Shown: positions 3,456-51,651, counted from the first letter of the stretch. The stretch: 64,000 nucleotides of DNA from Lachnospiraceae bacterium (GCA_024404675.1 JAKSPO010000009.1:16196-80195); one strand, 5' to 3'. Notes: generated by a model from the sequence alone, not told the origin. Numbers and translations are program-made.

Positions 3456-4736
3456 ATGAGTAACTATAAATTCGAAACACTTCAGCTTCATGTAGGTCAG
3501 GAACAGGCAGATCCGGTAACCGATTCCCGTGCGGTTCCGATTTACGCAACCACCTCTTATGTATTCCACAATGCCAAACATGCTGCAGACCGCTTCGGTC
3601 TTGCAGACGCAGGCAACATCTACGGTCGTCTTACCAACAGCACGCAGGGCGTATTTGAGCAGCGTATCGCAGCACTTGAGGGCGGCACCGCAGGACTTGC
3701 GGTTGCATCCGGTGCGGCAGCAATTACCTATACAATTCAGGCACTTGCAAAGCAGGGCGAGCACATCGTAGCACAGAAGACAATCTACGGCGGTACAAGC
3801 AACCTTCTGGCACACACCCTTCCGCTTTACGGTATTTCCGCAAGCTTCGTAGACGCGCATAACCTTTCGGAGGTTGAGGGTGCGATTCAGGAGAACACCA
3901 AGGCAATCTACATCGAGACGCTTGGCAATCCGAACTCCGATATTCCGGACATCGATGCAATCGCCGAGATCGCACATAAGCACGGACTTCCGCTTGTTAT
4001 TGACAACACCTTCGGCACCCCTTATCTGATTCGCCCGATCGAGCATGGCGCGGACGTTGTAATCCATTCCGCAACCAAGTTTATCGGCGGCCACGGCACA
4101 ACGCTCGGCGGTGTAATCGTAGACGGCGGCACCTTTGACTGGGCAGCAAGCGGACGTTATCCCTGGATTTCCGAGCCGAACCCGAGCTACCACGGCGTAA
4201 AGTTCACCGAGGCGGCAGGCAAGGCAGCATTTGCTACCTACATCAGAGCAATTCTGCTTCGTGACGAGGGCGCATGCATTTCTCCGTTTGCAGCATTTCT
4301 TCTTCTGCAGGGCACCGAGACGCTTTCCCTTCGTCTTGAGAGACATGCGGAGAACGCTAAGAAGGTTGTAGAGTTTCTTACCAAGCATCCGAAGGTTGCG
4401 AAGGTTAATCATCCGAGCCTTGCGGATCATCCGGACCACGCACTGTATGAGAAGTATTTCCCGAACGGCGGCGCTTCCATATTCACCTTTGAAATCAAGG
4501 GCGGCCAGGCAGAGGCCTTCAAGTTCATCGATAACCTGAAGATCTTCTCCCTCCTGGCAAATGTTGCCGATGTTAAGTCACTTGTAATTCATCCGGCAAC
4601 CACGACGCATTCCCAGCTTACCGACGAGGAGCTTTCTGAGGTTGGCATCAGCCGCAGCACGATCCGTCTTTCCATCGGCACCGAGCATATCGACGATATT
4701 ATCGCCGACCTTGCACAGGCATTTGACGCAGTATAA
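3456..4736 (+). CDS. metY: O-acetylhomoserine (thiol)-lyase / sulfhydrylase, PLP-dependent
   Basis: 426 aa. N-terminus 'FETLQLHVGQE..DP.T.SRAVPIY.TTSY.F' and PLP-lysine motif 'HSATKFIGGHG' are characteristic of the MetY/CysD family. Confidence 0.9.
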   Translation: MSNYKFETLQLHVGQEQADPVTDSRAVPIYATTSYVFHNAKHAADRFGLADAGNIYGRLTNSTQGVFEQRIAALEGGTAGLAVASGAAAITYTIQALAKQGEHIVAQKTIYGGTSNLLAHTLPLYGISASFVDAHNLSEVEGAIQENTKAIYIETLGNPNSDIPDIDAIAEIAHKHGLPLVIDNTFGTPYLIRPIEHGADVVIHSATKFIGGHGTTLGGVIVDGGTFDWAASGRYPWISEPNPSYHGVKFTEAAGKAAFATYIRAILLRDEGACISPFAAFLLLQGTETLSLRLERHAENAKKVVEFLTKHPKVAKVNHPSLADHPDHALYEKYFPNGGASIFTFEIKGGQAEAFKFIDNLKIFSLLANVADVKSLVIHPATTTHSQLTDEELSEVGISRSTIRLSIGTEHIDDIIADLAQAFDAV

Positions 4737-4840
4737 GGACGGCAAATGTGAAAAATAATCTTTCGTTATTGTAATATCGACGAAGAGAATGTATTCTGTA
4801 GAAAGAATCAGTTATCACAAGTAAAGAGAGGACTATTATT

Positions 4841-5773
4841 ATGGCTAAGGTATATACAGCAGTTGATCAGTTGATTGGAGGCACTCCGCTTCTTGAAGTA
4901 AAGCACATTGAGGAGGATCAGGCACTTGCGGCTAAGCTTCTTGTGAAGCTTGAATATTTTAATCCCGCGGGAAGCGTTAAGGACCGTGTTGCAAAATCAA
5001 TCATTGATGACGCAGAGGCGAGCGGAGCCCTGAAGCCCGGGGCAACGCTTATCGAGCCCACCTCCGGTAATACGGGAATCGGTCTGGCTGCAGTTGCGGC
5101 GGCGAGAGGCTACCGATTGATTATTACGATGCCTGAGACGATGAGCATTGAGAGAAGACAGCTGATTAAGGCATACGGTGCAGAAATCGTGCTTACCGAG
5201 GGCGCTAAGGGCATGAAGGGTGCGATTGCAAAGGCAGAGGAGCTGGCGGCAGAGATTGAGAACAGCTTTATCCCCGGTCAGTTTGTGAATCCGGCCAATC
5301 CGAAGGCACATCTTCTTACGACCGGTCCCGAGATCTGGCAGGATACCGACGGCGAGGTTGACATCTTTGTAGCAGGCGTTGGTACCGGCGGAACGATTAC
5401 CGGTGTCGGCGAATATCTGAAGTCCAAGAATCCGAATGTAAAAGTTATTGCTGTTGAGCCTGCAGGCTCTCCGGTTCTTTCTAAAGGCGTTTCCGGCGCA
5501 CATAAGATTCAGGGTATCGGCGCAGGCTTTGTGCCGGATGTTCTGAACACCTCGATTTACGACGAAATCATTCCGGTTGAGAATGAAGATGCTTTTGCAA
5601 CCGGCAAGCTTCTCGGTCGTAAGGAGGGCGTACTGGTCGGCATCTCCTCCGGTGCTTCTTTGTGGGCAGCCATTCAGGTTGCGAAGCGTCCCGAGAATGC
5701 AGGCAAGACGATTGTTGCGCTTCTTCCGGATACCGGAGACCGATATCTTTCCACACCGCTTTTTGCAGACTGA
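4841..5773 (+). CDS. cysK: cysteine synthase A (O-acetylserine sulfhydrylase)
   Basis: 310 aa. Contains '[14 protein letters not shown]', '[12 protein letters not shown]' and '[12 protein letters not shown]' motifs. Confidence 0.92.
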
Positions 5774-8787: not shown

Positions 8788-10002
8788 ATGAAGAAAACGC
8801 TGATTTTGTGCACGGCGCTTCTGGTGCTTATGTGCGGTATCATCGGTTGCGGCAAGAAGGACAATACGTCGACCGTGACACCGACCGTAGAAGCAACCCC
8901 GACGGCAACCGAGGCACCTACGGCGACCCCTACCCCCAGTCCTGTTCCGACCCCTCCGGAGGTGTATCTTCGTGAGCTTTTTGCGGAGCACGGAATGAAG
9001 GTTGGTACCTGTCTTACCACACAGATGATCAACAATAAGCTGATGAGTGAGCTGATTGTTGAGCAGTACAGCAGTGTTACCATGGAGAACTCCATGAAGC
9101 CTGATTACATCTTCAACAAAGAGAAGAGTATTGAGGCCGGTGACCTGGTTGTAGAATTCAATACCGATATGGTGCAGATGCTTGACTGGGCCAAGGAGAA
9201 CGAGATGGCTGTTCGCGGTCATACACTTGTATGGTACAGCCAGACCCCTGCGTGGATCTTCTATGAGGATTTTGATCAGTCGAAGGAGCTTGTAAGCCGA
9301 GAGGTTATGCTTGCACGTCTTGACAGCTACATGAAGCAGGTATTTTCGATGCTTGAGGAACAGGGATATTCCGATATCATCTATGCTTACGATGTTGTAA
9401 ACGAAGCAATCATGGAGGATGGAAAGCTTCGTATGCAGATGAACAACTGGTATGCTACAATCGGTGATGACTTCATCCTGCAGGCATTTATCACGGCCAA
9501 CCGTTACGCTCCCGAGAACATTGCTCTGTTCTATAACGACTACAATGAGCAGTTCAAGACGCAGGCACTTGTGGACCTTGTGAAGTCCCTTGTGGACGAG
9601 GATGGGAACTCCCTGATTGACGGTATCGGTTTCCAGGCACACCTCTATACAGAGGATAATCTTACGACCTACTTTAAGACTGTTGATGCCCTTGCCGAGC
9701 TTGGCATTACGGTTGAAATCACCGAGCTTGATGTATCTCTTGGTGCATGGCAGCATGAGAAGAGAGCCAATGAGGAGACGCTTGCGGAGCAGGGTCGTTA
9801 TTACTACAACCTGATTAACGGCATTCTTGAGAGAAAGGATTCCGGAAAGCTGAATATCGATGCGCTTACCTTCTGGGGTGTGTCCGACGGACAGTCCTGG
9901 AGAAAGTCGGCAAGCCCGCTTCTTTATAATTCTGCTTTCATGAAGAAGCCCGCCTTCTACGGCGCAGCACAGCTTAAGGATTTCGCAGGCTTTACGGAAT
10001 AA
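8788..10002 (+). CDS. GH10 endo-1,4-beta-xylanase, lipoprotein
   Basis: 404 aa. Lipobox 'LMCGIIGCGKK', Thr/Pro linker, 'YAYDVVNEA' (acid/base region) and 'ITELDVS' (nucleophile region). Confidence 0.88.
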   Translation: MKKTLILCTALLVLMCGIIGCGKKDNTSTVTPTVEATPTATEAPTATPTPSPVPTPPEVYLRELFAEHGMKVGTCLTTQMINNKLMSELIVEQYSSVTMENSMKPDYIFNKEKSIEAGDLVVEFNTDMVQMLDWAKENEMAVRGHTLVWYSQTPAWIFYEDFDQSKELVSREVMLARLDSYMKQVFSMLEEQGYSDIIYAYDVVNEAIMEDGKLRMQMNNWYATIGDDFILQAFITANRYAPENIALFYNDYNEQFKTQALVDLVKSLVDEDGNSLIDGIGFQAHLYTEDNLTTYFKTVDALAELGITVEITELDVSLGAWQHEKRANEETLAEQGRYYYNLINGILERKDSGKLNIDALTFWGVSDGQSWRKSASPLLYNSAFMKKPAFYGAAQLKDFAGFTE

Positions 10003-10226: not shown

Positions 10227-11573
10227 ATGGAAAGAGAGTATCAATACCCCGTGAATCTGTTCACGGAGGTCAGAATCGAAAATCGCTGGACGGCGGTTTA
10301 TGTTGTGCAGAACGGAGAGGTCATGCGGAACCTTGAGACCGAGACCACCGGTGCAATTGTTCGTGTATATGACGGGCAGATGTGGTACACGAGTGTGACG
10401 AACGCAATGGAGGATATCCAGAAGGAGATTGACGGTCTTGCGGCACTCGCAACACCCAATCCTGAGATCTATGAGCATCCGACGGTGCGCAATTTCGGCG
10501 ATTGCCGGGATACCGTGCTTCGTTATCAGGGGGAGGACAGTTTAAGAAAGGTTTCCGAGGAAGAGCGAGAGAAGCTAGTCTGGGACTATGTTAAGGTTTG
10601 TGAAGACAATCCGATTCCCGAGGTTGCGTCCTATCGTGCTATACTTAATCTCGAGAATCTGAAGAAGGAATACTATTCGAGTAAGGGTGCAGCAATCTGT
10701 CAGGATCAGCAGTCGGCTTTGTTTTTCCATGTGTCCGGCATTCTGATTGACGGTATTACCACCGGAGCGGCTAAGGGCTATTCCGTTACAAGCTTTGCGG
10801 AGCTTAAGGGACATGAAGAGGAGATTTTAGCGGAGCGGGAGCGTTATCTTCGCTACGCTAAGGAGGCTGTCGATGTTAAGCCCGGTGACTACACCTGCGT
10901 ACTCGCACCGAGTGTTACGGCGATGTTTACACACGAGAGCTTCGGTCACAAGAGTGAGTCCGACTTTATGCTGAACGATAAGACCCTTCGCGAGGAGTGG
11001 ATTCTTGGAAAGAAGGTCGGCAGCGAGCTTGTATCCATCAGTGATGACGGCGCCCTTCCGTATAGCGGCTATGTGCCTTATGACGATGAAGGCAACCGTG
11101 CGGTAAGAACGGATCTGATTACGAAGGGTGTTCTGACGGGACGGCTTCACGACAGCCATTCCGCAGCGGTGCTCGGTGAGACGATTACCGGCAATGCAAG
11201 AGCCCAGAGCTATTATTTTTCGCCGGTAGTGCGTATGACCAATACGATTATGGCAGCGGGCGAAAGCGATCCCGAGGATATTATCGCAGGCGTTCAGGAC
11301 GGCGTGTATATCTACGGTGTAAACTACGGAACCGGTTCCGCAACCTTCACGCTTCAGCCGAACTGCTGTTATAGAATTCGCGACGGAAAGCTTTGTGAGC
11401 CGCTTCGCGTCAATGTTGTTACCGGCAGTGTTTTTGAAGCGCTGTTCGATGTGGATGCAGTCGGAAATGACCTTCGGATTATCAACGAGGGCGTGTGTGG
11501 GAAGAACGGTCAGTCCGTGAACGTTTCGATGGGCGGACCGACGATTCGTGTGAAGAAATTATCCGTTAACTAG
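10227..11573 (+). CDS. tldD: TldD-family metallopeptidase
   Basis: 448 aa. HExxxH in 'THESFGHKSE' and C-terminal 'CGKNGQSVNVSMGGPTIRV' are typical of the TldD/PmbA fold. Confidence 0.8.
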   Translation: MEREYQYPVNLFTEVRIENRWTAVYVVQNGEVMRNLETETTGAIVRVYDGQMWYTSVTNAMEDIQKEIDGLAALATPNPEIYEHPTVRNFGDCRDTVLRYQGEDSLRKVSEEEREKLVWDYVKVCEDNPIPEVASYRAILNLENLKKEYYSSKGAAICQDQQSALFFHVSGILIDGITTGAAKGYSVTSFAELKGHEEEILAERERYLRYAKEAVDVKPGDYTCVLAPSVTAMFTHESFGHKSESDFMLNDKTLREEWILGKKVGSELVSISDDGALPYSGYVPYDDEGNRAVRTDLITKGVLTGRLHDSHSAAVLGETITGNARAQSYYFSPVVRMTNTIMAAGESDPEDIIAGVQDGVYIYGVNYGTGSATFTLQPNCCYRIRDGKLCEPLRVNVVTGSVFEALFDVDAVGNDLRIINEGVCGKNGQSVNVSMGGPTIRVKKLSVN

Positions 11574-11581
11574 GGGGAGCC

Positions 11582-12790
11582 ATGAAAGAGAAATATACCT
11601 ATCGATGCGTATCCGCGCAGGTGCGTTTTCAGGAGAACGCCATCGAGACATTTGCCAAGAATACAGAAATATCCTACTCCTTCCGTGTACAAAGGGACGG
11701 CTATCTCGGTGTACACTATCAGGAAGGGGAGATGACGGACGAGGAGGGCTATCGCCTCGCTACCGAGAATCTGAAGCGGAAGCGCCCGTACAAATACGCA
11801 CCGGAGACCGGTGTGCGCGAGCGTGACAAGTCCGAGCAGGAGATGAGCGACAGAGAGCTTCTTGACTTCGGTCGGGAATTGATTACAACACTCCACGAGA
11901 AGTATCCGGACTTTACCTTAAGCGGCAGTCTTCACAGCAGTCGCGAGGAGTCCGGAATGTATAACGACGCCGGGCTTTCCTATCGAAACAGAGATTGCAC
12001 CTACGGCATGGATATCATATTCAAGCATAAGGACAGTAAGGATCTGATGGACGGCTCCTTCTCCTACGGCTTCCGCAGGCTTGAAAAGGAAAAGGCGTAC
12101 AGAACGGCCGAGAATTATCTTTCGGCTTTTGTAAAGAAAGCGGAGCTTCCGGAGGAACTGATTATTCAGATGCCTGTATACGGCTTCATCGGAAAGCTCG
12201 TAAACCAGCTCGAGGGAGAGAATATGGCGCGCGGCACATCGCTTCTTTCCGGCAGAATCGGTGAGAAGGTATTCTCCGAGAAGCTGACGCTTTATAATGA
12301 CCGCTCCGATCTGACGACCTGGGCTACGCCTTTCTTTGACGGCGAGGGTGTTGTGATGGAGGGCGACAGGCAGGTATTTATCGACAAAGGTGTGGTTGTG
12401 CGGGCATATGCCGACAAGGCAACCGCAGAGCGCTACGGCATCGAGCATACTGCAACGGCCGGAAGAGTATTTGCCGATATTCCGACGAACGGGAATTTCT
12501 CCGGATACATCGAGCGTTCCGAGAAGACTACGAAGGAGCTTCTTCAGGGCAGACTTTCCGTTGTGCCGCTTTACTACGATGGCGGCGGCTTTAACGAGAA
12601 GGGTGATTATGTGATGCCTGTGCAGAGAGCATATCTGTGCGACGGTGAGAAGCTGATCGGTATGCTTCCGGAGTTTACGATGACCTCGAACCTGTTTGAC
12701 ATGTTCGGAGATGACTTCATCGGAATCGGAAGCGATGAGCCGGTATATAATGATAAGTGTATCTTAATACGTATGAAATACGGACATTAA
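11582..12790 (+). CDS. pmbA: PmbA/TldE-family partner protein (no HExxxH)
   Basis: 402 aa, starting 9 nt after tldD. TldD/PmbA-like length and C-terminal Gly-rich region. Lacks the metal-binding motif, as expected for the TldE partner. Confidence 0.65.
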   Translation: MKEKYTYRCVSAQVRFQENAIETFAKNTEISYSFRVQRDGYLGVHYQEGEMTDEEGYRLATENLKRKRPYKYAPETGVRERDKSEQEMSDRELLDFGRELITTLHEKYPDFTLSGSLHSSREESGMYNDAGLSYRNRDCTYGMDIIFKHKDSKDLMDGSFSYGFRRLEKEKAYRTAENYLSAFVKKAELPEELIIQMPVYGFIGKLVNQLEGENMARGTSLLSGRIGEKVFSEKLTLYNDRSDLTTWATPFFDGEGVVMEGDRQVFIDKGVVVRAYADKATAERYGIEHTATAGRVFADIPTNGNFSGYIERSEKTTKELLQGRLSVVPLYYDGGGFNEKGDYVMPVQRAYLCDGEKLIGMLPEFTMTSNLFDMFGDDFIGIGSDEPVYNDKCILIRMKYGH

Positions 12791-12801
12791 AGGAGACGAA
12801 G

Positions 12802-13584
12802 ATGAGACGATTTTGGTTAATGGTTGTAGCGCTTCTGCTTCTGTGGATCGATGTCGGATTCGTGACGGATATCAAGTATCCGGAGTATATATTCGACGAG
12901 GACTACGGCAGAGTGACGCAGAGCTTTGTGATGAATGAGGTGGTCGGAGACCATATGCGGATTGATCTGGTTACCGATATCCCGGGGCTTTTGATCCTCG
13001 CGTGGCTTGTGGTTACCGGCGGTCCCGGCGTTCGCCCGCTTGTTATTGAGGAGCAGGACGGTAAGCGAATCTCGCGTCATATCGGCAAGATGACGAAGCT
13101 ATCCAAAACGCATCTCAGGGATTCGATTCTTGGCTTTCTGCTTAGCATCGCGTCGGCCGGCTGCATCGTTGCGATGCGTATCCTGCCGCTTTATACAAAC
13201 GGCGTTCGCTGCTACGGCGCGGAATATATCATTCATCTGGTGGATATCATTCTTCCGCTTCTTGCAGTATATTATGTGATGATCGAATGGATTGAGCGTA
13301 CCGACCTGCGTACGACGCATCGAGAGACTGACGTAGCGGCACTTCTGATGATGGTTTCGCTGTTCGCCGGCTTCTTCTCTCGCTTTGCGAGACTGTACGG
13401 CTTCCATGGTGTTGATCGCTTTTCGTGGTACATCGAGGGCTTTTTGATGCTCATTGCGCTGTATTCGATGTGGGTCAGCCTGAAGGAAAATGCGAGAAAG
13501 CTTCAGCTCGGAGAGCTCGAATCACTCTACGAGAAGCGTAAGAAAAAGGACGATGATTCGAATTACGTTGACTACTATATGTAA
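12802..13584 (+). CDS. hypothetical polytopic membrane protein
   Basis: AAAGGAG lies 7 nt before the ATG at 12802 (MRRFWLMVVALLLLW...). About 260 aa with at least 6 hydrophobic segments and an acidic/basic C-terminal tail. Sits 12 nt downstream of the pmbA-like stop. Confidence 0.6.
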   Translation: MRRFWLMVVALLLLWIDVGFVTDIKYPEYIFDEDYGRVTQSFVMNEVVGDHMRIDLVTDIPGLLILAWLVVTGGPGVRPLVIEEQDGKRISRHIGKMTKLSKTHLRDSILGFLLSIASAGCIVAMRILPLYTNGVRCYGAEYIIHLVDIILPLLAVYYVMIEWIERTDLRTTHRETDVAALLMMVSLFAGFFSRFARLYGFHGVDRFSWYIEGFLMLIALYSMWVSLKENARKLQLGELESLYEKRKKKDDDSNYVDYYM

Positions 13585-13680
13585 AGAAACACATGCCGGC
13601 AGGTGGGGCCATAGCGCTTGTGCTTATATTTGGAACAACACAATCGGGACGTCGTAGGAGGTTTCGGTGTTGCAAGATAG

Positions 13681-13904
13681 AATCATCCTTTTGCTTCGCA
13701 AAAGCATGACAAAGGAATCATCCTTTTGCTATGCAAAAGCATGACAAAGGAATCATCCTTTTGCTACGCAAAAGCATGACGAAGGAATCATCCTTTTGCT
13801 TCGCAAAAGCATGACAAAGGAGCACACGCTGAATGAATACTCGCTCCGCGAGTAAGCGTGTACGTAGGTCATCCTTTTGCTTCGCAAAAGCATGACAAGA
13901 AAGG
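13681..13904 (+). repeat. five copies of a 35-nt hairpin-plus-AAGGA unit (4 tandem, 1 separated by a 48-nt nested palindrome)
   Basis: Copies at 13681-13715, 13716-13750, 13751-13785 and 13786-13820 (AATCATCCTTTTGC-TTC/TAT/TAC-GCAAAAGCATGACAAAGG), and a fifth at 13869-13904. Each holds a 12-bp imperfect inverted repeat TCATCCTTTTGC/GCAAAAGCATGA with a 3-nt loop. 13821-13868 holds nested inverted repeats ACACGCT..TACTCGC-TCC-GCGAGTA-AGCGTGT. Confidence 0.9.
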
Positions 13905-13915
13905 AAGGTACTTGT

Positions 13916-15898
13916 ATGCTGTATTATGTTAATCAGGCAGCTGCCTGTGAGGGGGATGGAAGTAAGAACCGGCCGTTTAAGCGCATCAGTGATGCCGCAA
14001 GAGTTGCAATGCCCGGCGACGAGGTAATCGTTGCAAAGGGTGTATATCGTGAGTACGTGAATCCGTTCCGTGGCGGTACGAAGGATGCAAGAATCGTATA
14101 TCGTTCGGAGGAGCCGCTTGGGGCGGTTGTAACCGGCGCCGAAAAGCTGTCCGGCTGGACACGGTATCAGGATTATGAGAATGTCTGGACCGTCCGTGTG
14201 GACAACGGTATCTTCGGGGATTACAATCCGTACACGACCGAGGTTTACGGCGACTGGTATTTTGCTCCGGCAGTGAGACACACCGGTGCGGTATATCTGA
14301 ACGATGTTATGCTTTACGAGACGGAGTCCTTAGAGGAATGTATCGAGGGAAAGGTCTACACGCCTTCCTGGGACCCGGACAAATCAATCTACAAATGGTA
14401 CACCGAGCAGGATAACGGTGAGACCGTTTTGTACGCGAATTTCCAGGGCTATGACCCGAATAAGGAAAATGTCGAAATCAACGTTCGTCGCCGTTGCTTC
14501 TTCCCGAGCAACACCGGCAGAGGCTACATCACCGTAAGCGGCTTTGTTTTCACAAAGGCTGCAACGACCTGGGCGCCTCCGGCAGCCTTCCAGGACGGCA
14601 TGGTTGGCCCGCACTGGAGCAAGGGCTGGATCATCGAGGATTGTGAGGTTTCCAACAGCAAATGCTGCGGTATCTCCCTCGGTAAGTACTATGACGCAGA
14701 GAATGACCACTACTTCACAAAGAAGCATATGAAGAGCCCCACGCAGATGGAGCGTGATGCCGTATGCCGCGGTCAGTATCATGGCTGGCTGAAGGAGAAG
14801 GTTGGTTCCCACATCGTACGTCGCTGCCACATCCATCATTGTGAGCAGACCGGTATCGTAGGACGTATGGGCGCCGTATTTTCCCTGATTGAAGACAATC
14901 ACATTCACCATATCAACAATATGCAGCAGCTTGGCGGTGCTGAGATTTCCGGTATCAAGCTTCACGCTGCAATCGACGTAGTAATCCGCCGTAACCACAT
15001 CCATCATTCCACGATGGGTATCTGGTGTGACTGGGAGGCACAGGGCACCCGCATCAGCCAGAACCTCCTGCATGACAACTATCGCCCGGATTTCTGCACC
15101 TGGGCCGAGGGCGGTATGGGCAGCCAGGATATCTTCGTTGAGGTTGGTCACGGTCCGACCCTGATCGACAATAACATCATGCTCTCAAAGGCATCGCTGA
15201 TGATTGCTACCGAGAGTGTTGCGATGGTACATAATCTGATTCTTGGTGCATTTCTCAATGTCGGTGCCGGAACCGGAGAACGTTATACGCCTTATCATAT
15301 CCGTCACCGGACAGAGGTTGCGGGCTTTATGACGATTCTTCACGGTGATGACCGCTTCTACAACAACATTTTCGTCCAAAAATGGCCGATCATCGTTGAC
15401 AAGGAGACCGGCGAGAAGAAGGAGAAGGATTCGCTTGTCGGAACCTGGCAGTTTGACGAGTATCCGACCTACGAGGAGTGGATTCCGCACTTTGATCTGG
15501 ATGTTGCAAGACCGGATATGGGCAAGCTTGCACAGTGGCACGAGAGAGAGCATCTTCCGGTTTGGGCCGGCGGCAACGCTTATCTCGGCGGTGCAAAGCA
15601 GTGGAAGAAGGAGACAAACTACTTCTTCGACGATGCGCAGGAGATTCAGGTTGAGCTTGTCGAAAAGGATGGTCAGTACATGCTTGAGACCAACGTTTAC
15701 GACATCATCAAGGACTACACCGCAGGAATTATTACCAGTGATATTCTTGGCAAGGCATTCCAGCCTGAGCAGCGTTTCGAGAATCCGGACGGCTCGGCAA
15801 TTACCTTCGACAGAGATTATTTCGGCGATGCGAGAGGACTTCGTACCGTACCCGGTCCCTTCGTTTCCGCGGACAGCTTAAAAAAGAAGGTCTGGTAA
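13916..15898 (+). CDS. right-handed beta-helix glycoside hydrolase, GH120 beta-xylosidase-like (XylC-like), no signal peptide
   Basis: About 660 aa. RBS AAAGGAAGG before the ATG at 13916; an in-frame ATG also exists at 13892. Motifs 'NPYTTEVYGDWY', 'YANFQGYDPNKENVEINVRR', 'GIKLHAAIDVVIRRNHIHH..GIWCDWEAQGTR' and 'HGDDRFYNNIF' match my recollection of the GH120 family. Family call is from memory, not from a search. Confidence 0.6.
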   Translation: MLYYVNQAAACEGDGSKNRPFKRISDAARVAMPGDEVIVAKGVYREYVNPFRGGTKDARIVYRSEEPLGAVVTGAEKLSGWTRYQDYENVWTVRVDNGIFGDYNPYTTEVYGDWYFAPAVRHTGAVYLNDVMLYETESLEECIEGKVYTPSWDPDKSIYKWYTEQDNGETVLYANFQGYDPNKENVEINVRRRCFFPSNTGRGYITVSGFVFTKAATTWAPPAAFQDGMVGPHWSKGWIIEDCEVSNSKCCGISLGKYYDAENDHYFTKKHMKSPTQMERDAVCRGQYHGWLKEKVGSHIVRRCHIHHCEQTGIVGRMGAVFSLIEDNHIHHINNMQQLGGAEISGIKLHAAIDVVIRRNHIHHSTMGIWCDWEAQGTRISQNLLHDNYRPDFCTWAEGGMGSQDIFVEVGHGPTLIDNNIMLSKASLMIATESVAMVHNLILGAFLNVGAGTGERYTPYHIRHRTEVAGFMTILHGDDRFYNNIFVQKWPIIVDKETGEKKEKDSLVGTWQFDEYPTYEEWIPHFDLDVARPDMGKLAQWHEREHLPVWAGGNAYLGGAKQWKKETNYFFDDAQEIQVELVEKDGQYMLETNVYDIIKDYTAGIITSDILGKAFQPEQRFENPDGSAITFDRDYFGDARGLRTVPGPFVSADSLKKKVW

Positions 15899-27408: not shown

Positions 27409-29856
27409 ATGGATAAATGGGCAAGAGCAAAATACTGTCCGAATCTTCCCGTCGGATTGGACGGACAGTACGTAACAAGCAGTAAGGAACACAAGGAGCT
27501 TTCTAAGTATGCGGCAAAGTGCGGCATGGTGCTTCTTGAGAATGTGAACAACACACTTCCGCTTAAGGAGGGCACGAGGGTGGCCCTTGTCGGCAAAGGA
27601 ACCTTTGACTATGTTAGAGGCGGCGGTGGAAGCGGTGACGTATACTGCGAGTATTCAAAGAATATTTATGACGGTTTGAAGGAGCTTGGTAAGACCTCGA
27701 TCTTCGAGCCCCTTTGCGATTATTATCGCGATGCGGTTAATGCGCAGTATGAAAAGCATATCGCACCGGGAATGACCGAGGAGCCCGGTGTGCCGGAGGA
27801 GCTTCTTTCGGAGGCTGCGGCTTATGCCGACACCGCAATCGTAACCATCAGCCGTTTCAGCGGCGAGGGCTGGGACCGTTCCGAAGTATCCTTCTATGAG
27901 GACGAGGTCAATCCCTGGATTATCGGTCAGGATGACGGCGAGAGCTTTGAGAACCTTGTAACACCGATGAATGAGCTTTCGGCGAGAATTTTCCCGAAGA
28001 GAGACTTCTACCTGACGGATGCGGAGGAGCAGATGCTTGCTAAGACCCGCGAGGCATTCAAGAAGGTAATCGTTCTTCTGAATGTCGGCGGTATGATGGA
28101 TTTAAGCTTCCTTCGCAGGATGAAGGTTGATGCGGCAATGTTTCTGTGGGCACCCGGTATGGAGGGCGGCACGGCTGCGGCTGAGCTGCTGCTTGGTTTA
28201 GACAATCCTTCCGGTAAGCTTCCGGATACCTTCGCCGACTCCCTCGATGCATATCCGTCGACCGCACGCTTCCACGAGAGCGGACGCTATGCACCTTATG
28301 ATGAGGACATTTATGTAGGCTATCGTTATTTTGAGACGGTGCCCGGCGCAAAGGAGCATGTGGTATATCCCTTCGGCTACGGTCTCAGCTACACAAGCTT
28401 TGAGATTACCTGTGACGAGATGAAGGTGAACGAGAAGGAGGTTTCCGTTCTGTTCGCTGTATGCAATACCGGTAATGTTCCCGGACGTGAGGTCGTACAG
28501 CTTTATGTTGAAGCACCGCAGGGCAAGCTGGGAAAGGCAAAGCGCAGCCTGATCGGCTTTGCGAAGACAGAGCTTCTTATGCCCCGTGAGCGTAAGCATA
28601 TCGAGCTGATTGTTCCGACCTCGTCCTTTGCGAGCTATGATGATCTGGGAAAGGTTTCGAAGAATTCCTATGTACTTGAGGCAGGCAAATACAGCTTCTA
28701 CCTCGGCAATTCCGTAGAAGACGCAGAAAGACTTCCGGTTACTTTGACGATTGCTACGGATACAATCGTGGAGAAGCTTTCGAGTAAGCTTGCACCGACC
28801 TCTCTTTCGGAAAGACTTCTTGCGGACGGCAGTATGGAGAAGCTTCCTACCTCCGAACCGCTTGATCCCGATGAGGATGCAATCGGTCGAGTTGCCAAGG
28901 GTGCCGATGCGGGCTACACTCCTTATATCCGTTCAAGAGAGCAGCATCTGATCAACAGACCTTATCGTGACGGCGTAACGCTTCCTACGGAGATGGGCGG
29001 CAAGGCAACGCTTGATGAGTTTATTTCCGATCTGACAGACGATGAGCTGATTCACCTGCTCGGCGGACAGCCGAATACCGGTATGGCCAACACCTTCGGT
29101 ATGGGTAATCTTCCCGAGGTTGGGCTTCCGTCCTTTATGACCGCGGACGGTCCTGCAGGACTTCGTCTTGGAGAGTACTGCGGTGTTCATGCGACCTGCT
29201 GGCCGTGCGCATCGTTACTTGCATCCAGTTGGGATGAGGAGCTGATGCACCATGTCGGTACGGCAGCCGGTGCTGAGGTGAAGGAGTGCAATATCTTCAT
29301 GTGGCTTGCTCCTGCAGTCAATATTCACCGGAATCCGATGTGCGGACGTAACTTTGAGTATCTTTCCGAGGATCCGCTTCTTGCCGGCAAGCTGGCAGCA
29401 GCCGAGGTACGCGGTATTCAGAGCAACAAGGTAGCTGCAACGATTAAGCATTTTGCCTGCAACAATAAGGAGACCAACAGAATCTACTGTGACGCGCTTG
29501 TTTCCGAGCGTGCGCTTCGTGAGATTTACCTGAAGGTTTTTGAAATCATTGTTAAGGAAGCAGATCCCTGGTGCGTGATGAGCTCCTATAATCTGATTAA
29601 CGGCCGTCGCTGCTCCGAGTCTAAGGAGCTTCTTACCGACATCCTTCGTGATGAGTGGGGCTTTAACGGAATGGTTATGACCGACTGGTGGAACCGTGGT
29701 GAGCACTATAAGGAGGTTCTTGCCGGCAACGATGTGAAGATGCCTACCGGCTTCCCGGATCGTCTTAGAAGAGCCATGGAGGTTGGCGTCCTCAAGCGTG
29801 AGGACCTGGAGCGAAGCGTCAGAAGACTCCTCACACTTCTCTTCAAGTTTGAGTAG
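27409..29856 (+). CDS. GH3 beta-glycosidase with permuted domain order
   Basis: 815 aa. The alpha/beta-sandwich ('LLENVNNTLPLKEGTRVALVGKG') and Fn3-like ('VVQLYVEAPQGKLGKAKRSLIGFAKT') modules come first. The (beta/alpha)8 catalytic module with 'KHFACNN' and nucleophile motif 'GMVMTDWW' is C-terminal. Confidence 0.85.
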   Translation: MDKWARAKYCPNLPVGLDGQYVTSSKEHKELSKYAAKCGMVLLENVNNTLPLKEGTRVALVGKGTFDYVRGGGGSGDVYCEYSKNIYDGLKELGKTSIFEPLCDYYRDAVNAQYEKHIAPGMTEEPGVPEELLSEAAAYADTAIVTISRFSGEGWDRSEVSFYEDEVNPWIIGQDDGESFENLVTPMNELSARIFPKRDFYLTDAEEQMLAKTREAFKKVIVLLNVGGMMDLSFLRRMKVDAAMFLWAPGMEGGTAAAELLLGLDNPSGKLPDTFADSLDAYPSTARFHESGRYAPYDEDIYVGYRYFETVPGAKEHVVYPFGYGLSYTSFEITCDEMKVNEKEVSVLFAVCNTGNVPGREVVQLYVEAPQGKLGKAKRSLIGFAKTELLMPRERKHIELIVPTSSFASYDDLGKVSKNSYVLEAGKYSFYLGNSVEDAERLPVTLTIATDTIVEKLSSKLAPTSLSERLLADGSMEKLPTSEPLDPDEDAIGRVAKGADAGYTPYIRSREQHLINRPYRDGVTLPTEMGGKATLDEFISDLTDDELIHLLGGQPNTGMANTFGMGNLPEVGLPSFMTADGPAGLRLGEYCGVHATCWPCASLLASSWDEELMHHVGTAAGAEVKECNIFMWLAPAVNIHRNPMCGRNFEYLSEDPLLAGKLAAAEVRGIQSNKVAATIKHFACNNKETNRIYCDALVSERALREIYLKVFEIIVKEADPWCVMSSYNLINGRRCSESKELLTDILRDEWGFNGMVMTDWWNRGEHYKEVLAGNDVKMPTGFPDRLRRAMEVGVLKREDLERSVRRLLTLLFKFE

Positions 29857-33746: not shown

Positions 33747-33771
33747 CCGAAATAATTGAATATTGATATGG

Positions 33772-33950
33772 AAGATACGGTTTGAAAGTTGTAATAATGA
33801 GTAGATTAATAGGGAATCCGGTTTGAGTCCGGAACAACCGCCATTACTGTATTTGATGAAGAGGGCACGGAATACCATTGGTGCAAGCCGAGAAGGTGTG
33901 CCTTCGCGCAGGAACTGCTATACCATAAGTCAGGAGACCTGCCGTATCTT
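33772..33950 (+). promoter_or_regulatory. cobalamin (B12) riboswitch aptamer
   Basis: P1 is AGATACGG (33773-33780) paired with CCGTATCT (33942-33949). Conserved core 'AATAGGGAATCCGGTTTGAGTCCGGAACAACCGCCATTACTGTA' and B12 box 'AAGTCAGGAGACCTGCC' (33927-33943). Confidence 0.85.
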
Positions 33951-34065
33951 TTTAGGTTTTTCACGCTTGGGCAATGGGAGAGTGCAGCCGGTATATCGTT
34001 ACAGGGCCTTGACACTTTTCCGAGGGAACGTGTTGTGTGCCTGTTTTTGCTTGCGATTTATCAGT

Positions 34066-34098: not shown

Positions 34099-34196
34099 AG
34101 ATATTTGGTCGCTTGCCGTTCAGCCGGCTGGTGACCGGGGCGAACCTGCCCGGAGCTTAGAATCTGTGTTGTGTGCTTTCAAAGAGGAGGAAATGT

Positions 34197-35072
34197 ATGG
34201 CTTACGAACGAAGGCATCCGTCGGTACTTCTTGTCTATTACCTGTCGGTGACCTTGTTTCTGATGTTTACTTCCCATCCCTTACTCCGACTGATTGCTTT
34301 ATGTGGTGCAGTACTTCTGATGCTTTCGACCGGGGAGCGGGCGCCTAAGCTAAGAACGGTACTTTTTCTTAGCGGAATGGTCGTTCTGACGATTATCATA
34401 AATCCGCTTTTTTCGCACCGCGGAGCGACGGAACTGTTCTTTTTCAATAACCGGCCAATTACCCTCGAGGCGATTATGTACGGCGCAGGCGTCGCCTGTC
34501 TGATGCTTTCGGTTATCCTTTGGTTTCACCTTCTTAGCCGGATGCTTGACAGTGAGAAGCTTCTGACGCTTCTTGGCGGGGTGATGCCGAAGACGGCTTT
34601 TCTCGTCTCCTCGGCGTTACGAATGATTCCCTTTCTTCGAAGGCGTGCGGAAGCGATTCAATCGACGGGACGGTCGATGGGACTCTACGGAACCGAAAGT
34701 ATTCCGGAGAAGCTTTCGGGTAGCGGCAAAGCATTCTCGGCGCTTGTGACCAATTCAATGGAGCACGCGATGGATGCGGGTGCTTCGATGAAGGCAAGAG
34801 GCTACGGATCGCATAAAAGAACACATTATAAAAGATATCGTTTTCGGCGGGGTGACCTTGCTGCAATTGTCCTTATTCTTTGTTTGGATGCGGGAATCTC
34901 GGTAGGGCTTGCAAGCGGGGAGGTTTGGTTCACCTACTACCCAAGACTTGCGATGCATACCGGTCCTATGACTAATCTGGTGCTTATTCTCTATGCGCTG
35001 CTTGTGTTACTTGGTCCCGTAGCAGAGTGGAAAGAAAGACTGAAATGGAAATATTACGTGTCGAAAATCTGA
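34197..35072 (+). CDS. ECF transporter T component (CbiQ/EcfT family)
   Basis: GGAGG lies 6 nt before the ATG at 34197. About 290 aa, polytopic, with an 'ALRMIPFLRRRAEAIQSTGRSMG' CbiQ-type coupling-helix region. Confidence 0.75.
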   Translation: MAYERRHPSVLLVYYLSVTLFLMFTSHPLLRLIALCGAVLLMLSTGERAPKLRTVLFLSGMVVLTIIINPLFSHRGATELFFFNNRPITLEAIMYGAGVACLMLSVILWFHLLSRMLDSEKLLTLLGGVMPKTAFLVSSALRMIPFLRRRAEAIQSTGRSMGLYGTESIPEKLSGSGKAFSALVTNSMEHAMDAGASMKARGYGSHKRTHYKRYRFRRGDLAAIVLILCLDAGISVGLASGEVWFTYYPRLAMHTGPMTNLVLILYALLVLLGPVAEWKERLKWKYYVSKI

Positions 35073-36721
35073 CCTTTTCTTATCCGGAAGCGGCTAAGCC
35101 TGCGCTTTCGCAGGTGAGCTTTTCGCTGAAGGAAGGGGAATTCGCAGTTTTGTGCGGGTTGTCGGGCTGTGGCAAGTCAACGCTTTTAAGACTTCTAAAA
35201 AAAGAGCTTGCCCCCTACGGCAGTTGTACGGGAGAGATTACAATCGGTGTTCTGTCCGGGAAGGATAAGGATGCTTCTATGGCTACGGAGACGGCGCTTC
35301 TTCGGCAGAATCCGGACAGCCAGATCGTTACGGATGTTGTGTGGCATGAGCTGGCATTTGCCCTTGAAAATATGGGAACGCCGCAGGAGATTATTCGAAA
35401 GCGTGTGGCGGAGATTGCCACATTCTTCGGAATGGAAGGCTGGTATCATCGTAAGGTGGATGAGCTTTCCGGCGGACAGAAGCAGCTGTTGAATCTGGCT
35501 TCTGTGATGACGCTTGCACCGCAGGTGCTTCTTTTGGACGAGCCGACTGCGCAGCTCGATCCGATTGCAACGGGGGAGTTTATTCATATACTGGAACGGC
35601 TTCATCGGGAGCTTGGCATCACGATTCTGATTGCGGAGCATCACCTCGAGGAGGTGCTGCCGCTTGCGGATCGGGTGCTGATACTCGAGGAGGGAAGACT
35701 TTCCTATGACGGTAGTCCCGCAGCGCTTTCTGACTTCTTTCAAGATAAGGTGGAGCATCCGTTGCTTCCTTCCTTGCCTGCTGCCTCGAGAGTGTTTCGC
35801 GCCCTTTTGGGAGAAGGTGCGCTTCCGATTTCGGTTGCCGACGGGCGAAGCTTTGTAAGAGCGCATTACGGACAAGGCATTCCTAGACTTGAGAGAACTT
35901 CGCATATACCGAAGAACGAGCCGGCAACGGTTTTAAAGGAGATCTGGTTTCGTTACGAAAGAAATGCGCCGGATGTACTTCGTTCGGCAGAGCTTACCAT
36001 ATATCAGGGAGAGCGGCTGTGCCTTCTTGGCGGAAACGGAAGCGGTAAGACAACCCTACTTTCTCTCTTAGCAGGCATCCGTAAGCCCTATGCCGGAAGT
36101 ATCACGCTGTTCGGGCGAAAGCTTTCCGGGTACCGGCCGGAAGAACGGTATCGAAACAACATCGGGTATTTGCCGCAGAATCCGCGTGAGGCCTTCGTCG
36201 GAGAGACAGTGCTTGAGGATTGGAAGCTTGCGTGCCGCGCCATGGAGTATTCCACGGAGGAAGGCGATGCGCAGATTGCAGCGATGGCTGAGAAGCTGTC
36301 GCTTACGGAGCTTCTTCGGCGTCATCCGTCCGACCTGAGCGGCGGAGAGCTACAGCGGGCAGCGCTTGGAAAGGTACTTCTTCTTAAGCCGAGACTTCTT
36401 CTTTTAGATGAGCCGACTAAGGGCATTGACGCCAGGTTTAAGATGGAGCTTACAAAGCTTCTGAAAGCACTTTCGGAAGATGGCATAACAGTTGTTACGG
36501 TAACACATGATGTGGAATTTGCCGCAGAAACCGCGGAGCGTGTCGGACTGGTCTTCGACGGAGAGGTTACCTCCGTACAGGAGACGACGGACTTCTTTAC
36601 GGGCAATACCGTTTATACAACAGAAGCGGCGCGCATCGCGAGAAATTATTACGAAGAAGTGACACGGACGGAGGAGCTGATTGCTTTGTGCCGGTTGAAT
36701 GGACGGGGTGAGCAGGCATGA
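35045..36721 (+). CDS. ECF/ABC transporter ATPase, duplicated (A1-A2 fusion)
   Basis: Two ABC cassettes: Walker A 'GLSGCGKST' with 'LSGGQKQ', and 'GGNGSGKTT' with 'LSGGELQ'. Start is ambiguous (GTG 35027 or ATG 35045) and overlaps the T-component stop. Confidence 0.85.
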   Translation: MEILRVENLTFSYPEAAKPALSQVSFSLKEGEFAVLCGLSGCGKSTLLRLLKKELAPYGSCTGEITIGVLSGKDKDASMATETALLRQNPDSQIVTDVVWHELAFALENMGTPQEIIRKRVAEIATFFGMEGWYHRKVDELSGGQKQLLNLASVMTLAPQVLLLDEPTAQLDPIATGEFIHILERLHRELGITILIAEHHLEEVLPLADRVLILEEGRLSYDGSPAALSDFFQDKVEHPLLPSLPAASRVFRALLGEGALPISVADGRSFVRAHYGQGIPRLERTSHIPKNEPATVLKEIWFRYERNAPDVLRSAELTIYQGERLCLLGGNGSGKTTLLSLLAGIRKPYAGSITLFGRKLSGYRPEERYRNNIGYLPQNPREAFVGETVLEDWKLACRAMEYSTEEGDAQIAAMAEKLSLTELLRRHPSDLSGGELQRAALGKVLLLKPRLLLLDEPTKGIDARFKMELTKLLKALSEDGITVVTVTHDVEFAAETAERVGLVFDGEVTSVQETTDFFTGNTVYTTEAARIARNYYEEVTRTEELIALCRLNGRGEQA

Positions 36722-50061: not shown

Positions 50062-51651
50062 ATGATGAATATGGATTCAAAAATGGATTTTGAGAAGCTT
50101 TACAGGGATAATTATCAGGCGGTATATTATACCGCGCTGCAGCTGATGGGGGATTCGTATGCAGCGGAGGATATCACGCAGGAAGTGTTTATTACGGCAT
50201 TTACCAGATATGAGAGTCTGCGGGATACGGACAGCTTTCAGGCGTGGGCGAAGAAAATCGCTGCGAACAAATGCATCGATGAGCTGCGAAAGAAGCGCCC
50301 GATCGCCATGGAGGATTCGGATCTGGAGGCTGTCGCAGAGCTCGAGCCGGAGGAGAATTTTCTTCCGGAGGAATATGTGTTGAACGCAGAAAAGCGTCAG
50401 ACAGTTCTTGGAATTATGAAACAGGTGCTCTCAAAAAAGCAGTACGAAACCGTGTTTCTTTACTATTTCGATGAGCTTTCCATGACGGAGATTGCAAAGC
50501 TTCAGAACATTCCCGAGGGAACGGTACTGTCCAGATTATCGAATGCGAGGGCGAAGATCAAAAAGGGAGTTCTGGAGCACGAGAAGAAGCATGACGAGAA
50601 GCTTTACAGTACGGCAATCGTTCCGCTGCTTGCGCTTCTGTTCCGCTATGAGGCCGAGTCGGTAGGAATTCCTGCAGCTATGCCGCCGGCTGTTGCGAGT
50701 GCGATTTCATCCGGCAGCTCAGCGGCGGAGGGAGCCGGTTCGGCGGCAGGTGTAACGGCAGGCGGCGCGTCGGCCGGAGCAGCCGCAGGAAAGGGACTTA
50801 GTATGGCAATCATTGCTGCCGTTACGGTATTGGTTGCCGGAGCTGTTCTGGCAGCAGTTCTTTTTTTCAACCGCGGCGGGGAGCAGGACACGAAATCTAA
50901 GGCTGAAACCGAACAAAGCGGTGTAAAGCGTGAGGAAAGTAACCCGACACCGGAGGCTGAACCGACTATAGAGGTGACGCAGCAGCCGAGTCCCGCTGTA
51001 ACAGCAGTGCCCACCGAAGAACCGATTCTGACACCGACACCGGAACCGACATCAACACCCGGTGCGATTATAGAGGGAATTACGGTCTCCTTTGACGGCC
51101 TCAGCATTGAACTCGGAAAGACGACCGTTCGCGATATTATCGACGATGAGAAGACCGACTGGGTATCCGATCTGTGGTACCGGGAGGAGGGGATGCTTCT
51201 GCCGGGAACGGAGGGTATGTATCCATTGAAGAGCTATTATTGGCTCAGTGTTTCTCAGGGGGAGAACTTCGACAGCCTGAGCGAAGAGGACAAGAAATAT
51301 CTTTATGGTGACGGGGAAGAATATCTCTTCGATATCTGCAACCTGTCGGAGAAGGAGGTCGCGGAGGCTGACGGGGTCATCATCGGATTTTCCTTCACGG
51401 CTCCCGAATCCGACTGGCGTCGTTCACCGTCCATCGAGGTAAACGGTCTGCGCTTCGGAAACAGTATGGATGAGGTCAGAGCGACTATGGGAGATCTTTC
51501 CGTTACACACAGCGAAGCATTCGATGGAACTGAAACCTGGTATTATTCAGACGGGCATGACTGCTTATATTTCCATTTTACGGAGGATGGCAGAGTGAAC
51601 GGCATCAGCTTCAGCTATGATTATGAGGGAAAGCCGGTGGAACGCGAATGA
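50062..51651 (+). CDS. ECF-type sigma-70 factor fused to a TM segment and ~260-aa extracytoplasmic domain
   Basis: 529 aa. Region 2 ('EDITQEVFITAF...FQAWAKKIAANKCIDELRKKRP'), region 4 ('YETVFLYYFDELSMTEIAKLQNIPEGTVLSRLSNARAKIKKG'), an Ala/Gly-rich stretch, TM 'MAIIAAVTVLVAGAVLAAVLFF', a Pro/Thr/Glu linker and a C-terminal globular part. The start could be ATG at 50062, 50065 or 50071. Confidence 0.75.
   Translation: MMNMDSKMDFEKLYRDNYQAVYYTALQLMGDSYAAEDITQEVFITAFTRYESLRDTDSFQAWAKKIAANKCIDELRKKRPIAMEDSDLEAVAELEPEENFLPEEYVLNAEKRQTVLGIMKQVLSKKQYETVFLYYFDELSMTEIAKLQNIPEGTVLSRLSNARAKIKKGVLEHEKKHDEKLYSTAIVPLLALLFRYEAESVGIPAAMPPAVASAISSGSSAAEGAGSAAGVTAGGASAGAAAGKGLSMAIIAAVTVLVAGAVLAAVLFFNRGGEQDTKSKAETEQSGVKREESNPTPEAEPTIEVTQQPSPAVTAVPTEEPILTPTPEPTSTPGAIIEGITVSFDGLSIELGKTTVRDIIDDEKTDWVSDLWYREEGMLLPGTEGMYPLKSYYWLSVSQGENFDSLSEEDKKYLYGDGEEYLFDICNLSEKEVAEADGVIIGFSFTAPESDWRRSPSIEVNGLRFGNSMDEVRATMGDLSVTHSEAFDGTETWYYSDGHDCLYFHFTEDGRVNGISFSYDYEGKPVERE

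Follow-up and report, generated by a model that had tools for sequence, protein, structure and literature searches.

A copy-number-variable array of 35-nt palindromic units upstream of a Lachnospiraceae GH120 beta-xylosidase gene

Introduction

What kind of element is a row of near-identical hairpins that runs up to the ribosome-binding site of a carbohydrate-active enzyme gene, and could it influence the expression of that gene? This question is raised by a 64,000-nt stretch of DNA (hereafter the window) from a Lachnospiraceae metagenome-assembled genome (MAG; GCA_024404675.1, JAKSPO010000009.1:16196-80195). The window is ordinary chromosome, rich in xylan hydrolases of several glycoside hydrolase (GH) families (GH10 twice, GH120, GH51, GH31 and GH3). 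A first-pass annotation, made by a model from the sequence alone, had described five 35-nt units, each a hairpin followed by a purine-rich linker, in front of a GH120-like gene. It had suggested that they might be a platform for the RNA-binding protein CsrA, a set of standby or decoy ribosome sites, an operator array for a DNA-binding protein, or a genome-wide repeat. We find that its description of the array is right, and that special mechanisms such as a CsrA sponge are at present unsupported. It is well supported that the array is a young, species-restricted minisatellite of palindromic units whose copy number varies between strains. Its kind is already known: it is a further member of the intergenic palindromic tandem repeats. 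The best explanation overall, which we advance tentatively, is that this minisatellite serves as a cis-acting structured RNA spacer, with the number of units tuning the xylosidase.

Results

Structure of the array

Direct reading of the sequence places four 35-nt units head-to-tail, with no gaps between them, at 13683-13822 (all positions are those of the window). Tandem Repeats Finder (TRF) reports the same array at 13680-13821 (period 35, 4.1 copies, 94% matches, score 256), and a separate repeat search returned the same repeat families as TRF. All three approaches show the array, and both the annotated tandem units (from 13683) and the fifth hairpin, which follows a palindrome downstream of them, are real. 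Each hairpin can be written as TCATCCTTTTGC-NNN-GCAAAAGCATGA, that is, 27 nt with 12-bp arms and a single C-C mismatch. The arms are identical in all five hairpins of the window, and variation lies mainly in the 3-nt loop; the arms, the mismatch and the order of the loops (TTC, TAT, TAC, TTC, TTC) are all as had been described. The 27-nt pattern has five sites, all on the + strand, as against none in 100 dinucleotide shuffles.

Two elements of the earlier description hold only in part. The same 8-nt linker had been said to follow every hairpin: CAAAGGAA does follow units 1 and 2, but unit 3 is followed by CGAAGGAA and unit 4 by CAAAGGAG. Similarly, a nested palindrome does separate the tandem units from the fifth hairpin, but it is 38 nt long, within a 46-nt spacer, rather than 48 nt. 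Because the units abut one another through a constant 8-nt linker and have no spacers, and because no cas domains were found in the window by a Pfam scan of candidate open reading frames (ORFs) of at least 120 aa, we agree that the array is not of the CRISPR type (short palindromic repeats, clustered and regularly interspaced). The repeat is also non-coding, as proposed.

Variation between conspecific strains

To see how the array behaves within the species, we aligned the locus in four conspecific Logan assemblies, here called L123 to L126, which have 98% nucleotide identity (the sample accessions for the array locus are SRR25429208, SRR25429145, SRR25429209 and SRR21151012). Because these four independent assemblies carry the same hairpins, the array is not an assembly artefact. 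L123 spans the gap and is missing exactly 105 nt, or three units, relative to the window; a single unit with loop TAT remains, followed by the palindrome and by the last unit, whose loop is TAC. In L124 the loop of the last unit is TAT, and in the window, L125 and L126 it is TTC. Three of the four conspecific contigs end within the array, and those of L125 and L126 start exactly at 30-mers common to the TTC-loop unit and another unit. By our own reading of the sequences this suggests several TTC-loop units, since a k=31 graph would branch at such a point if they were present. Copy number among the strains, as obtained indirectly from these short-read k=31 assemblies, is 1+1, at least 2+1, and 4+1 (tandem units plus the last unit). 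In addition, 11 nt (AAGGTATGACA) are inserted in L123, L124 and L125, a slippage indel that duplicates ATGACAA beside the Shine-Dalgarno (SD) sequence.

Across eight aligned copies of the hairpin, all 24 of the 24 stem positions are invariant. The tandem units vary at three sites, the second and third bases of the loop and the second base of the linker; the unit next to the palindrome also differs at its last linker base. Of the three variable unit positions, two are inside the 3-nt loop (p ~0.02 by our own calculation), a concentration that is suggestive only. The three loop alleles of the tandem part (TTC, TAC and TAT) recur at the last unit of different strains. Because the same alleles shuffle positions between strains, slippage and conversion or recombination among units appear to be ongoing. 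The nested palindrome is unchanged in L123 and L126, where it is whole, and so is the portion of it that L124 covers. Outside the repeats, the gap has accumulated 5 single-nucleotide polymorphisms (SNPs) in 96 nt, against a 2% background.

Distribution of the unit

We then asked if the unit is found anywhere else. Neither the unit, nor its 17-nt core, nor its 12-nt half-sites occur again in the window, and a covariance model built from the eight copies detected no diverged copies in 169 kb of sequence from the window and from conspecific and related loci. The leader gave no match in Rfam, either at the gathering threshold or at E values up to 10. A scan for the exact unit in 185,579 species-representative genomes returned no Lachnospiraceae match and one singleton, in a Pedobacter MAG (DATFQH010000315.1, L001 3628-3654). 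All 24 specified bases of this singleton match, the C-C mismatch included, where a uniform model predicts ~0.004 matches. The opposite strand reads here as a likely small membrane-protein ORF with the singleton inside it, and no ORF of at least 80 aa covers the site; we rejected it as a true family member and treat it as a coincidence within a likely small coding ORF. Plasmid and phage collections contained no match to the unit, and among 5.8 billion proteins no gene call overlaps it in any of the six frames of conceptual translation. In a metagenome scan with the pattern ATSCTTTTGCNNNGCAAAAGSAT, the array was absent among the matches listed (120 loci), but this pattern is self-complementary through its two S codes and so draws in unrelated perfect palindromes, and the scan says little.

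Orthologues of the GH120 gene with 80-88% protein identity sit in other gene contexts and have no unit hairpin upstream. The sole match between the leader and these relatives is the 12-mer ATCATCCTTTTG, ~90 nt upstream in the closest relative (L134), and it is marginal (E = 0.036). A resemblance in another relative, L131 (GGAATCAT..GCAAAAG), was set aside as not significant. So was the idea of a conserved hairpin just 5' of the SD in GH120 leaders, which only 3 of 7 relatives would support, with mixed z-scores. The search for further copies and their locations thus leaves a single locus in the 64 kb and none upstream of the relatives' orthologues.

Some of the sequences examined contain repeats of their own. 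In L135, whose orthologue has 85% identity, positions 731-901 upstream of the gene hold an element of ~170 bp that resembles a miniature inverted-repeat transposable element (MITE). Its terminal inverted repeats, GCAGGAAACTTGCGTAAGTGACC, are 23 nt long, and it has two partial copies inside. Just downstream of it comes a strong promoter of the extended -10 type, TGTTATAAT (~947-955). The 500-nt leader of the L130 orthologue (4560-4960; 86% identity) has its own direct repeats, with CACATCCATAGACCGGCAGGGC and GGAACTCAA present twice each and GAGTACCAA(A)AGAAAC-like sequences three times. The gap upstream of the GH120 gene thus seems to collect repeats in several species. Among metagenome contigs, a GC-rich multi-hairpin intergenic repeat was seen in human-gut contigs (L017 690-990, also L005, L019, L027, L057 and many others). 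Its core, AAATGCTTTTGC-NNN-GCAAAAGCATTT, often occurs in two copies ~210 nt apart, with a tRNA gene beside it and a lysine riboswitch nearby; it too is a 12-3-12 hairpin and has 10 nt of the 3' arm in common with the unit studied here, and is otherwise unrelated. Sediment contigs (L002, L010, L020, L021, L044 and L085, from Ga0315275 / Ga0315294) carry an unrelated repeat family, GGCATGCTTTTGC-TGC-GCAAAAGCATGGCACCC, which recurs across many sediment metagenome contigs.

Position of the array in a probable leader

The array lies inside a 331-nt untranslated gap between a gene for a 254-aa protein and the GH120 gene, both on the + strand. The downstream gene, previously called GH120-like, encodes a full-length GH120 beta-xylosidase homologue by its matches to Pfam PF21258 and PDB 3VST. 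A consensus scan found no promoter-like or terminator-like site on the + strand from 13585 to the array, and a relaxed promoter scan gave nothing inside the units but poor matches, with 19-nt spacers. Because no such site separates the array from the upstream gene, which stops at 13584, the array is most simply a segment of intercistronic or leader RNA, and we infer that it is transcribed as such. The untranslated-leader position first proposed for it is in this way plausible. The gene for the 254-aa protein is probably co-transcribed with the downstream locus.

Other roles for the palindromes were considered and discarded. A terminator is a poor fit, as the stems are AT-rich and there is neither a U-tract nor a convergent gene. 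A serine-recombinase or dif-like site was suggested by the 12-3-12 geometry, which is like that of hix/res, but the window has no recombinase gene and the 3-bp centre is odd. An invertible segment is contradicted by the orientation, which is identical in every strain.

RNA folding and SD-like strength

A single unit folds into the described hairpin at -9.4 kcal/mol, with 62% of the ensemble in that structure. The whole leader is more stable than its shuffles (z = -4.5; 0 of 100 shuffles as stable), and the units and the nested palindrome likewise fold more stably than shuffled sequence. In the ensemble of the region 13640-13960, however, the closing pairs of the local triloop hairpins have a probability of only 0.01-0.32; helices between units, which put CAAAGGAA into a loop of 8 nt, reach 0.15-0.35. 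Because each unit is a near-palindrome, the arms of different units pair equally well. The arrangement of hairpins parted by single-stranded GGA, as originally described, is one of the folds available to the leader, and only one among several near-isoenergetic ones. The local hairpins would be favoured if the RNA folds as it is transcribed. Linkers 1 and 2 and the true SD keep their GGA mostly unpaired (P 0.61-0.96). In linker 3 it is mostly paired (P unpaired ~0.24-0.38), and for linker 4 the P unpaired of the middle G is 0.30. The true SD forms the loop of a weak 5-bp stem (ACAAG 13895-13899 / CTTGT 13911-13915, -2.4 kcal/mol) and is open, with a P unpaired of 0.93-0.96.

How good are the linkers as ribosome-binding sites? 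Against a generic Firmicute anti-SD, which was not read from this organism, linkers 1-3 pair at -6.2 to -6.6 kcal/mol, and 17% of random 13-nt windows from this DNA do at least as well. Linker 4 (AAAGGAG) pairs at -8.4 kcal/mol (reached by 7%) and the true SD at -13.9 kcal/mol (reached by under 2.3%). The linkers and the true SD have AAGGA in common and nothing else. Because the linkers are weak next to the true SD, what had been taken for an amplified translation-initiation region is better described as an amplified hairpin plus a weak purine tract. The hypothesis of standby or decoy ribosome sites is weak for the same reason: with -6.2 to -6.6 as against -13.9 kcal/mol, the linkers are poor mimics of the SD.

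Small ORFs and the start codon

A chain of small ORFs runs along the + strand from 13593 to 13855 with ATGA stop/start overlaps, and consists of a 38-codon ORF, three 12-codon ORFs (MTKESSFC[YF]AKA) and a 14-codon ORF. The 38-codon ORF (ATG 13593) begins 9 nt past the stop of the upstream gene. The 12-codon ORFs overlap from unit to unit because 35 = 36 - 1. No SDs were found in front of these mini-ORFs, and the chain ends at 13855, broken at the nested palindrome before the xylosidase start. We rejected a mini-ORF relay as mostly a by-product of a 3n-1 period that contains ATGA (chance ~8%, our own estimate). Linker 4 and the 20-codon ORF at 13833-13895 are probably incidental as well. An alternative xylosidase start at ATG 13892 is in frame here but, by alignment count, is put out of frame by the 11-nt indel in L123-L125; the two orthologues that we read directly (L134 and L135) begin M-x-Y-Y-V-N, which also counts against this start.

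Table 1. Coordinates of the array, its surroundings and the neighbouring genes.
Feature	Position	Strand	Remarks
GH10 xylanase	8788-10002	+	upstream neighbour
TldD/PmbA pair	10227-12790	+	upstream neighbour
254-aa hydrophobic protein of no known family (membrane-protein gene)	12820-13584	+	upstream of the array
Unit 1 hairpin	13683-13709	+	loop TTC; -9.4 kcal/mol alone; 62 bits (covariance model)
Linker 1, CAAAGGAA	13710-13717	+	weak SD-like, with ACA..GGA; -6.2 kcal/mol against generic anti-SD
Unit 2 hairpin	13718-13744	+	loop TAT
Linker 2, CAAAGGAA	13745-13752	+	
Unit 3 hairpin	13753-13779	+	loop TAC
Linker 3, CGAAGGAA	13780-13787	+	
Unit 4 hairpin	13788-13814	+	loop TTC
Linker 4, CAAAGGAG	13815-13822	+	best SD-like linker; -8.4 kcal/mol; 10 nt 5' of ATG 13833
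Nested palindrome	13824-13861	+	38 nt; outer stem ACACGCT/AGCGTGT, inner stem TACTCGC/GCGAGTA, loop TCC; -17.5 kcal/mol
Candidate 20-codon upstream ORF, MNTRSASKRVRRSSFCFAKA	13833-13895	+	speculative; spans palindrome and hairpin 5; ends 20 nt 5' of xylosidase ATG
Unit 5 hairpin	13869-13895	+	loop TTC here; TAC or TAT in other strains
True Shine-Dalgarno, AGAAAGGAAGG	13898-13908	+	-13.9 kcal/mol
GH120 beta-xylosidase gene, 660 aa	13916-15898	+	PF21258; PDB 3VST, E = 7.5e-136

Gene content of the window

Downstream of the GH120 gene, on the + strand, are genes for a metallophosphoesterase, a beta-eliminating lyase and a beta-lactamase-fold protein. The Pfam scan of the window's ORFs gave no transposase, recombinase, cas, csrA, fliW or flagellar genes, and within ~10 kb of the array no gene for a DNA-binding regulator. 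The metalloprotease pair TldD/PmbA is in this species inserted between the GH10 gene and the ~254-aa membrane protein (10227-13584). At the related locus L130 (1-1348) GH10 is directly followed by a 259-aa protein, which likewise has no Pfam match, and then come an Xre-TPR regulator, an ATP-binding cassette (ABC) exporter and GH120.

Several features elsewhere in the window are worth recording in their own right. A cobalamin riboswitch (RF00174, 90 bits) lies at 33761-33960 on the + strand, 5' of genes for a CbiQ-like protein and for an ABC ATPase in duplicate; the genes that follow it (34173-36721) look like an energy-coupling factor (ECF)-type transporter, and after them come DUF4430 and prenyltransferase-like proteins. 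At 27409-29856 (+) a GH3 protein has permuted domains, with the C-terminal domain, an Fn3-like domain and lastly the N-terminal catalytic domain. An ORF at 50062-51651 (+) combines an extracytoplasmic function (ECF)-type sigma domain (regions 2 and 4; residues 13-168) with a C-terminal extension of ~360 aa without a Pfam match. Finally, tandem repeats of 6, 12 and 30 nt at 53444-53614 lie inside a VanY-domain ORF (53329-54633, - strand), where they probably encode a low-complexity linker of the protein.

Discussion

How might such an array arise, and what might it do? A 35-bp unit, made up of a 27-nt imperfect palindrome and an 8-nt purine-rich linker, has undergone head-to-tail duplication, likely by slippage or unequal recombination, and recombination between units holds the stems identical and relocates loop alleles. 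The array would be part of a transcript shared with the flanking genes, in which it forms an intercistronic or 5' leader segment, and would act in cis. Its stem-loops and central nested hairpin would make up a structured block, which could shield the xylosidase message from exonucleases after processing, could shield the upstream message from 3' exonucleases, and could insulate the strong, unpaired SD from upstream structure. Gain and loss of units would change the length of the leader and the number of barriers, and in this way might tune the xylosidase from strain to strain. We hold a cis-acting RNA role tentatively, by analogy with the hairpins of repetitive extragenic palindromic (REP) sequences (PMC12306157) and with Firmicute 5' stabilisers (PMC5737220).

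Several observations weigh against a role as a structured spacer. The leader has no single defined RNA fold at equilibrium, but several near-isoenergetic ones. The orthologous leaders of related species show no consistent hairpin, from which it follows that the GH120 gene does not need one. The identity of the stems can be explained without selection, by recent duplication and conversion, and hypermutability of the loop would yield the same loop-biased pattern. A promoter missed by the consensus scan could sit upstream of the array or inside it. Lastly, the copy numbers, taken from short-read k=31 assemblies, are indirect.

The main rival is a neutral minisatellite: a slippage-driven 35-bp palindromic repeat that is tolerated in the gap and whose effect on expression is invisible to selection. 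This account we judge somewhat less likely than the structured spacer, but close to it. It would readily explain why copy number and nearby indels vary between strains that are 98% identical, and why the array is absent from all of the relatives examined. The stems show no compensatory changes, and hence no covariation evidence, and the non-repeat part of the gap is fast-evolving. Neutrality sits less easily with the retention of the proximal hairpin in every conspecific strain that covers the region, with the palindrome's lack of change in L123, L126 and the part covered by L124, or with the concentration of variation at loop positions. It is also unlikely that a structured insert of 140 nt in a leader would be wholly without effect.

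Could the array instead be a platform for CsrA, or for another RNA-binding protein that recognises GGA or purines? The five ACA-AA-GGA linkers and the SD would then bind several dimers, and would either repress translation of the xylosidase or titrate the protein in the manner of a cis-encoded CsrB/RsmZ. We regard this as very improbable. In its favour are five GGA motifs at 35-nt spacing, with linkers 1 and 2 and the true SD mostly unpaired, and an ACA before each GGA, as in the consensus RUACARGGAUGU obtained by systematic evolution of ligands through exponential enrichment (SELEX). An alternative register, with the 3' arm of one unit bound to the 5' arm of the following unit, presents CAAAGGAA in an 8-nt loop (P ~0.15-0.35), the true SD lies within the loop of a 5-bp stem, and SD-overlapping CsrA sites are known from Bacillus hag (PMC7652899). 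Against this, ACAAAGGAAU fits RUACARGGAUGU only with a 1-nt insertion (PMC7652899). High-affinity CsrA sites present GGA in an (ANGGAN) hexaloop on a stem of no more than 4 bp (PMC7652899), whereas the GGA here is found in 8-nt linkers or in an 8-nt loop on 12-bp stems. The leader has no Csr/Rsm match in Rfam even at E = 10, the array has no promoter or terminator of its own in the + strand scans, and some strains have only 1+1 units. In Firmicutes, CsrA is dedicated to flagellin and its antagonist is FliW rather than small RNAs (sRNAs; PMC7652899), and neither csrA nor flagellar genes turned up in the Pfam scan of the window. An operator array, in which a dimeric transcription factor on each 12-3-12 palindrome would control transcription into the xylosidase gene, seems to us just as hard to credit. 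Invariant half-sites around a variable centre in 27-bp palindromes are the pattern expected of protein-contacted half-sites, and the sites are just 5' of a sugar-utilisation gene. But neither sites nor half-sites precede the other xylan genes in the 64 kb (GH10 twice, GH51, GH3 and GH31), no gene for a DNA-binding protein was found within ~10 kb, no promoter-like site overlaps the array, and strains differ in copy number. The 35-bp spacing, moreover, comes to 3.3 turns of the helix, which leaves the sites out of phase rather than along one face. These findings leave the operator proposal of the first-pass annotation without support.

The last proposal to be weighed is that the array is a local cluster of a genome-wide, mobile palindromic element of the kind of REP sequences or mycobacterial interspersed repetitive units (MIRUs). 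A likeness between the imperfect stem and the sites that Y1 transposases use counts in its favour. The unit also has the hallmarks of REP sequences, being extragenic and palindromic, within 14-40 nt and present in highly similar copies (PMC12306157). The 12-codon ATG...TGA mini-ORF in each unit, with its ATGA overlap, recalls the -4 coupling of MIRUs (PMC12548453), and other repeats are found upstream of the relatives' orthologues in L135 and L130. Yet all copies are at one locus in the 64 kb and in ~12 kb of conspecific DNA. The 185,579 species genomes hold no exact copy bar the probably coding Pedobacter singleton, and the 5.8 billion proteins hold no gene call overlapping the unit in any frame. 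No transposase was found in the window by the Pfam scan, and the units are strictly direct and abutting, unlike those of bacterial interspersed mosaic elements (BIMEs). The window, conspecific and relative sequences searched thus lend the genome-wide proposal no support, and we rate it as very unlikely.

A more ambitious reading would make the array a contingency locus for polysaccharide use. Slippage that alters the number of hairpin-plus-GGA modules would switch or grade the output of a xylanolytic enzyme between cells or strains of a gut Lachnospiraceae bacterium. It might work through a GGA-binding protein such as CsrA, which would make the array a sponge-like platform encoded in cis, the first in Clostridia; or ribosome loading and exonuclease blocking might be responsible. 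We consider this improbable. Phase and dosage variation in this bacterial group is usually ascribed to invertible promoters. Should copy number affect expression, a carbohydrate-active enzyme in an abundant gut and rumen family would have in this array a tuning device that is simple, heritable and reversible; without such an effect, the array is a young minisatellite of the ordinary kind. In practical terms the array is a strain marker, and it is also a breakpoint for short-read assemblies.

Comparison with known systems

The array resembles CsrB/RsmZ sponges and CsrA-bound leaders in its regularly spaced, mostly unpaired GGA motifs with a preceding ACA, in its flanking stems, and in having one such motif that overlaps the SD. 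It differs from them in not being an independent sRNA gene, in having no Rfam similarity, and in not presenting GGA in short-stem hexaloops; sponge RNAs are, moreover, not known in Firmicutes, where FliW antagonises CsrA (PMC7652899). With the REP sequences and BIMEs of enterobacteria and pseudomonads it has in common near-identical, extragenic, imperfect palindromes of 27 nt between co-directional genes, a position in which REP hairpins act as barriers to mRNA decay (PMC12306157). REP sequences, however, have tens to hundreds of scattered copies and BIMEs switch orientation from one unit to the next, whereas the units here are direct, abutting and at one locus in the sequences searched; no REP-associated tyrosine transposase (RAYT, a Y1 transposase) was found among the Pfam-scanned ORFs of the window. 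Mycobacterial MIRUs are likewise tandem units in operon gaps, with variable copy number and mini-ORFs that have 4-nt ATGA overlaps (PMC12548453). MIRUs are 40-100 bp long, occupy ~40 loci and are coupled to the flanking genes, whereas the ATGA overlaps of the array run only from unit to unit, with no -4 coupling to the flanking genes, and a single locus was found.

Firmicute 5' stabilisers (the STAB-SD of cryIIIA, the polypurine tract of ermC, the 5' stem-loops of aprE and gapA, and hbs) offer another parallel, with stem-loops and SD-like tracts upstream of a strong SD. In these elements RNase J1 is blocked by bound ribosomes or by structure (PMC5737220 and its references 13-16). The known stabilisers are single and near the 5' end, while the SD-like tracts of the array are weak (-6.2 to -8.4 kcal/mol) and repeated. 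Finally, like bacterial intergenic minisatellites, or the variable-number tandem repeat (VNTR) loci used for multiple-locus VNTR analysis (MLVA) typing, the array has units tens of bp long that follow one another head-to-tail in a non-coding gap. As in those loci, copy number varies in near-identical strains, slippage indels lie nearby, and the units are homogenised by recombination. What sets the array apart is that its unit is itself a 12-3-12 palindrome with an SD-like purine tract, and that it abuts a ribosome-binding site, which makes effects on expression likelier than for an average VNTR.

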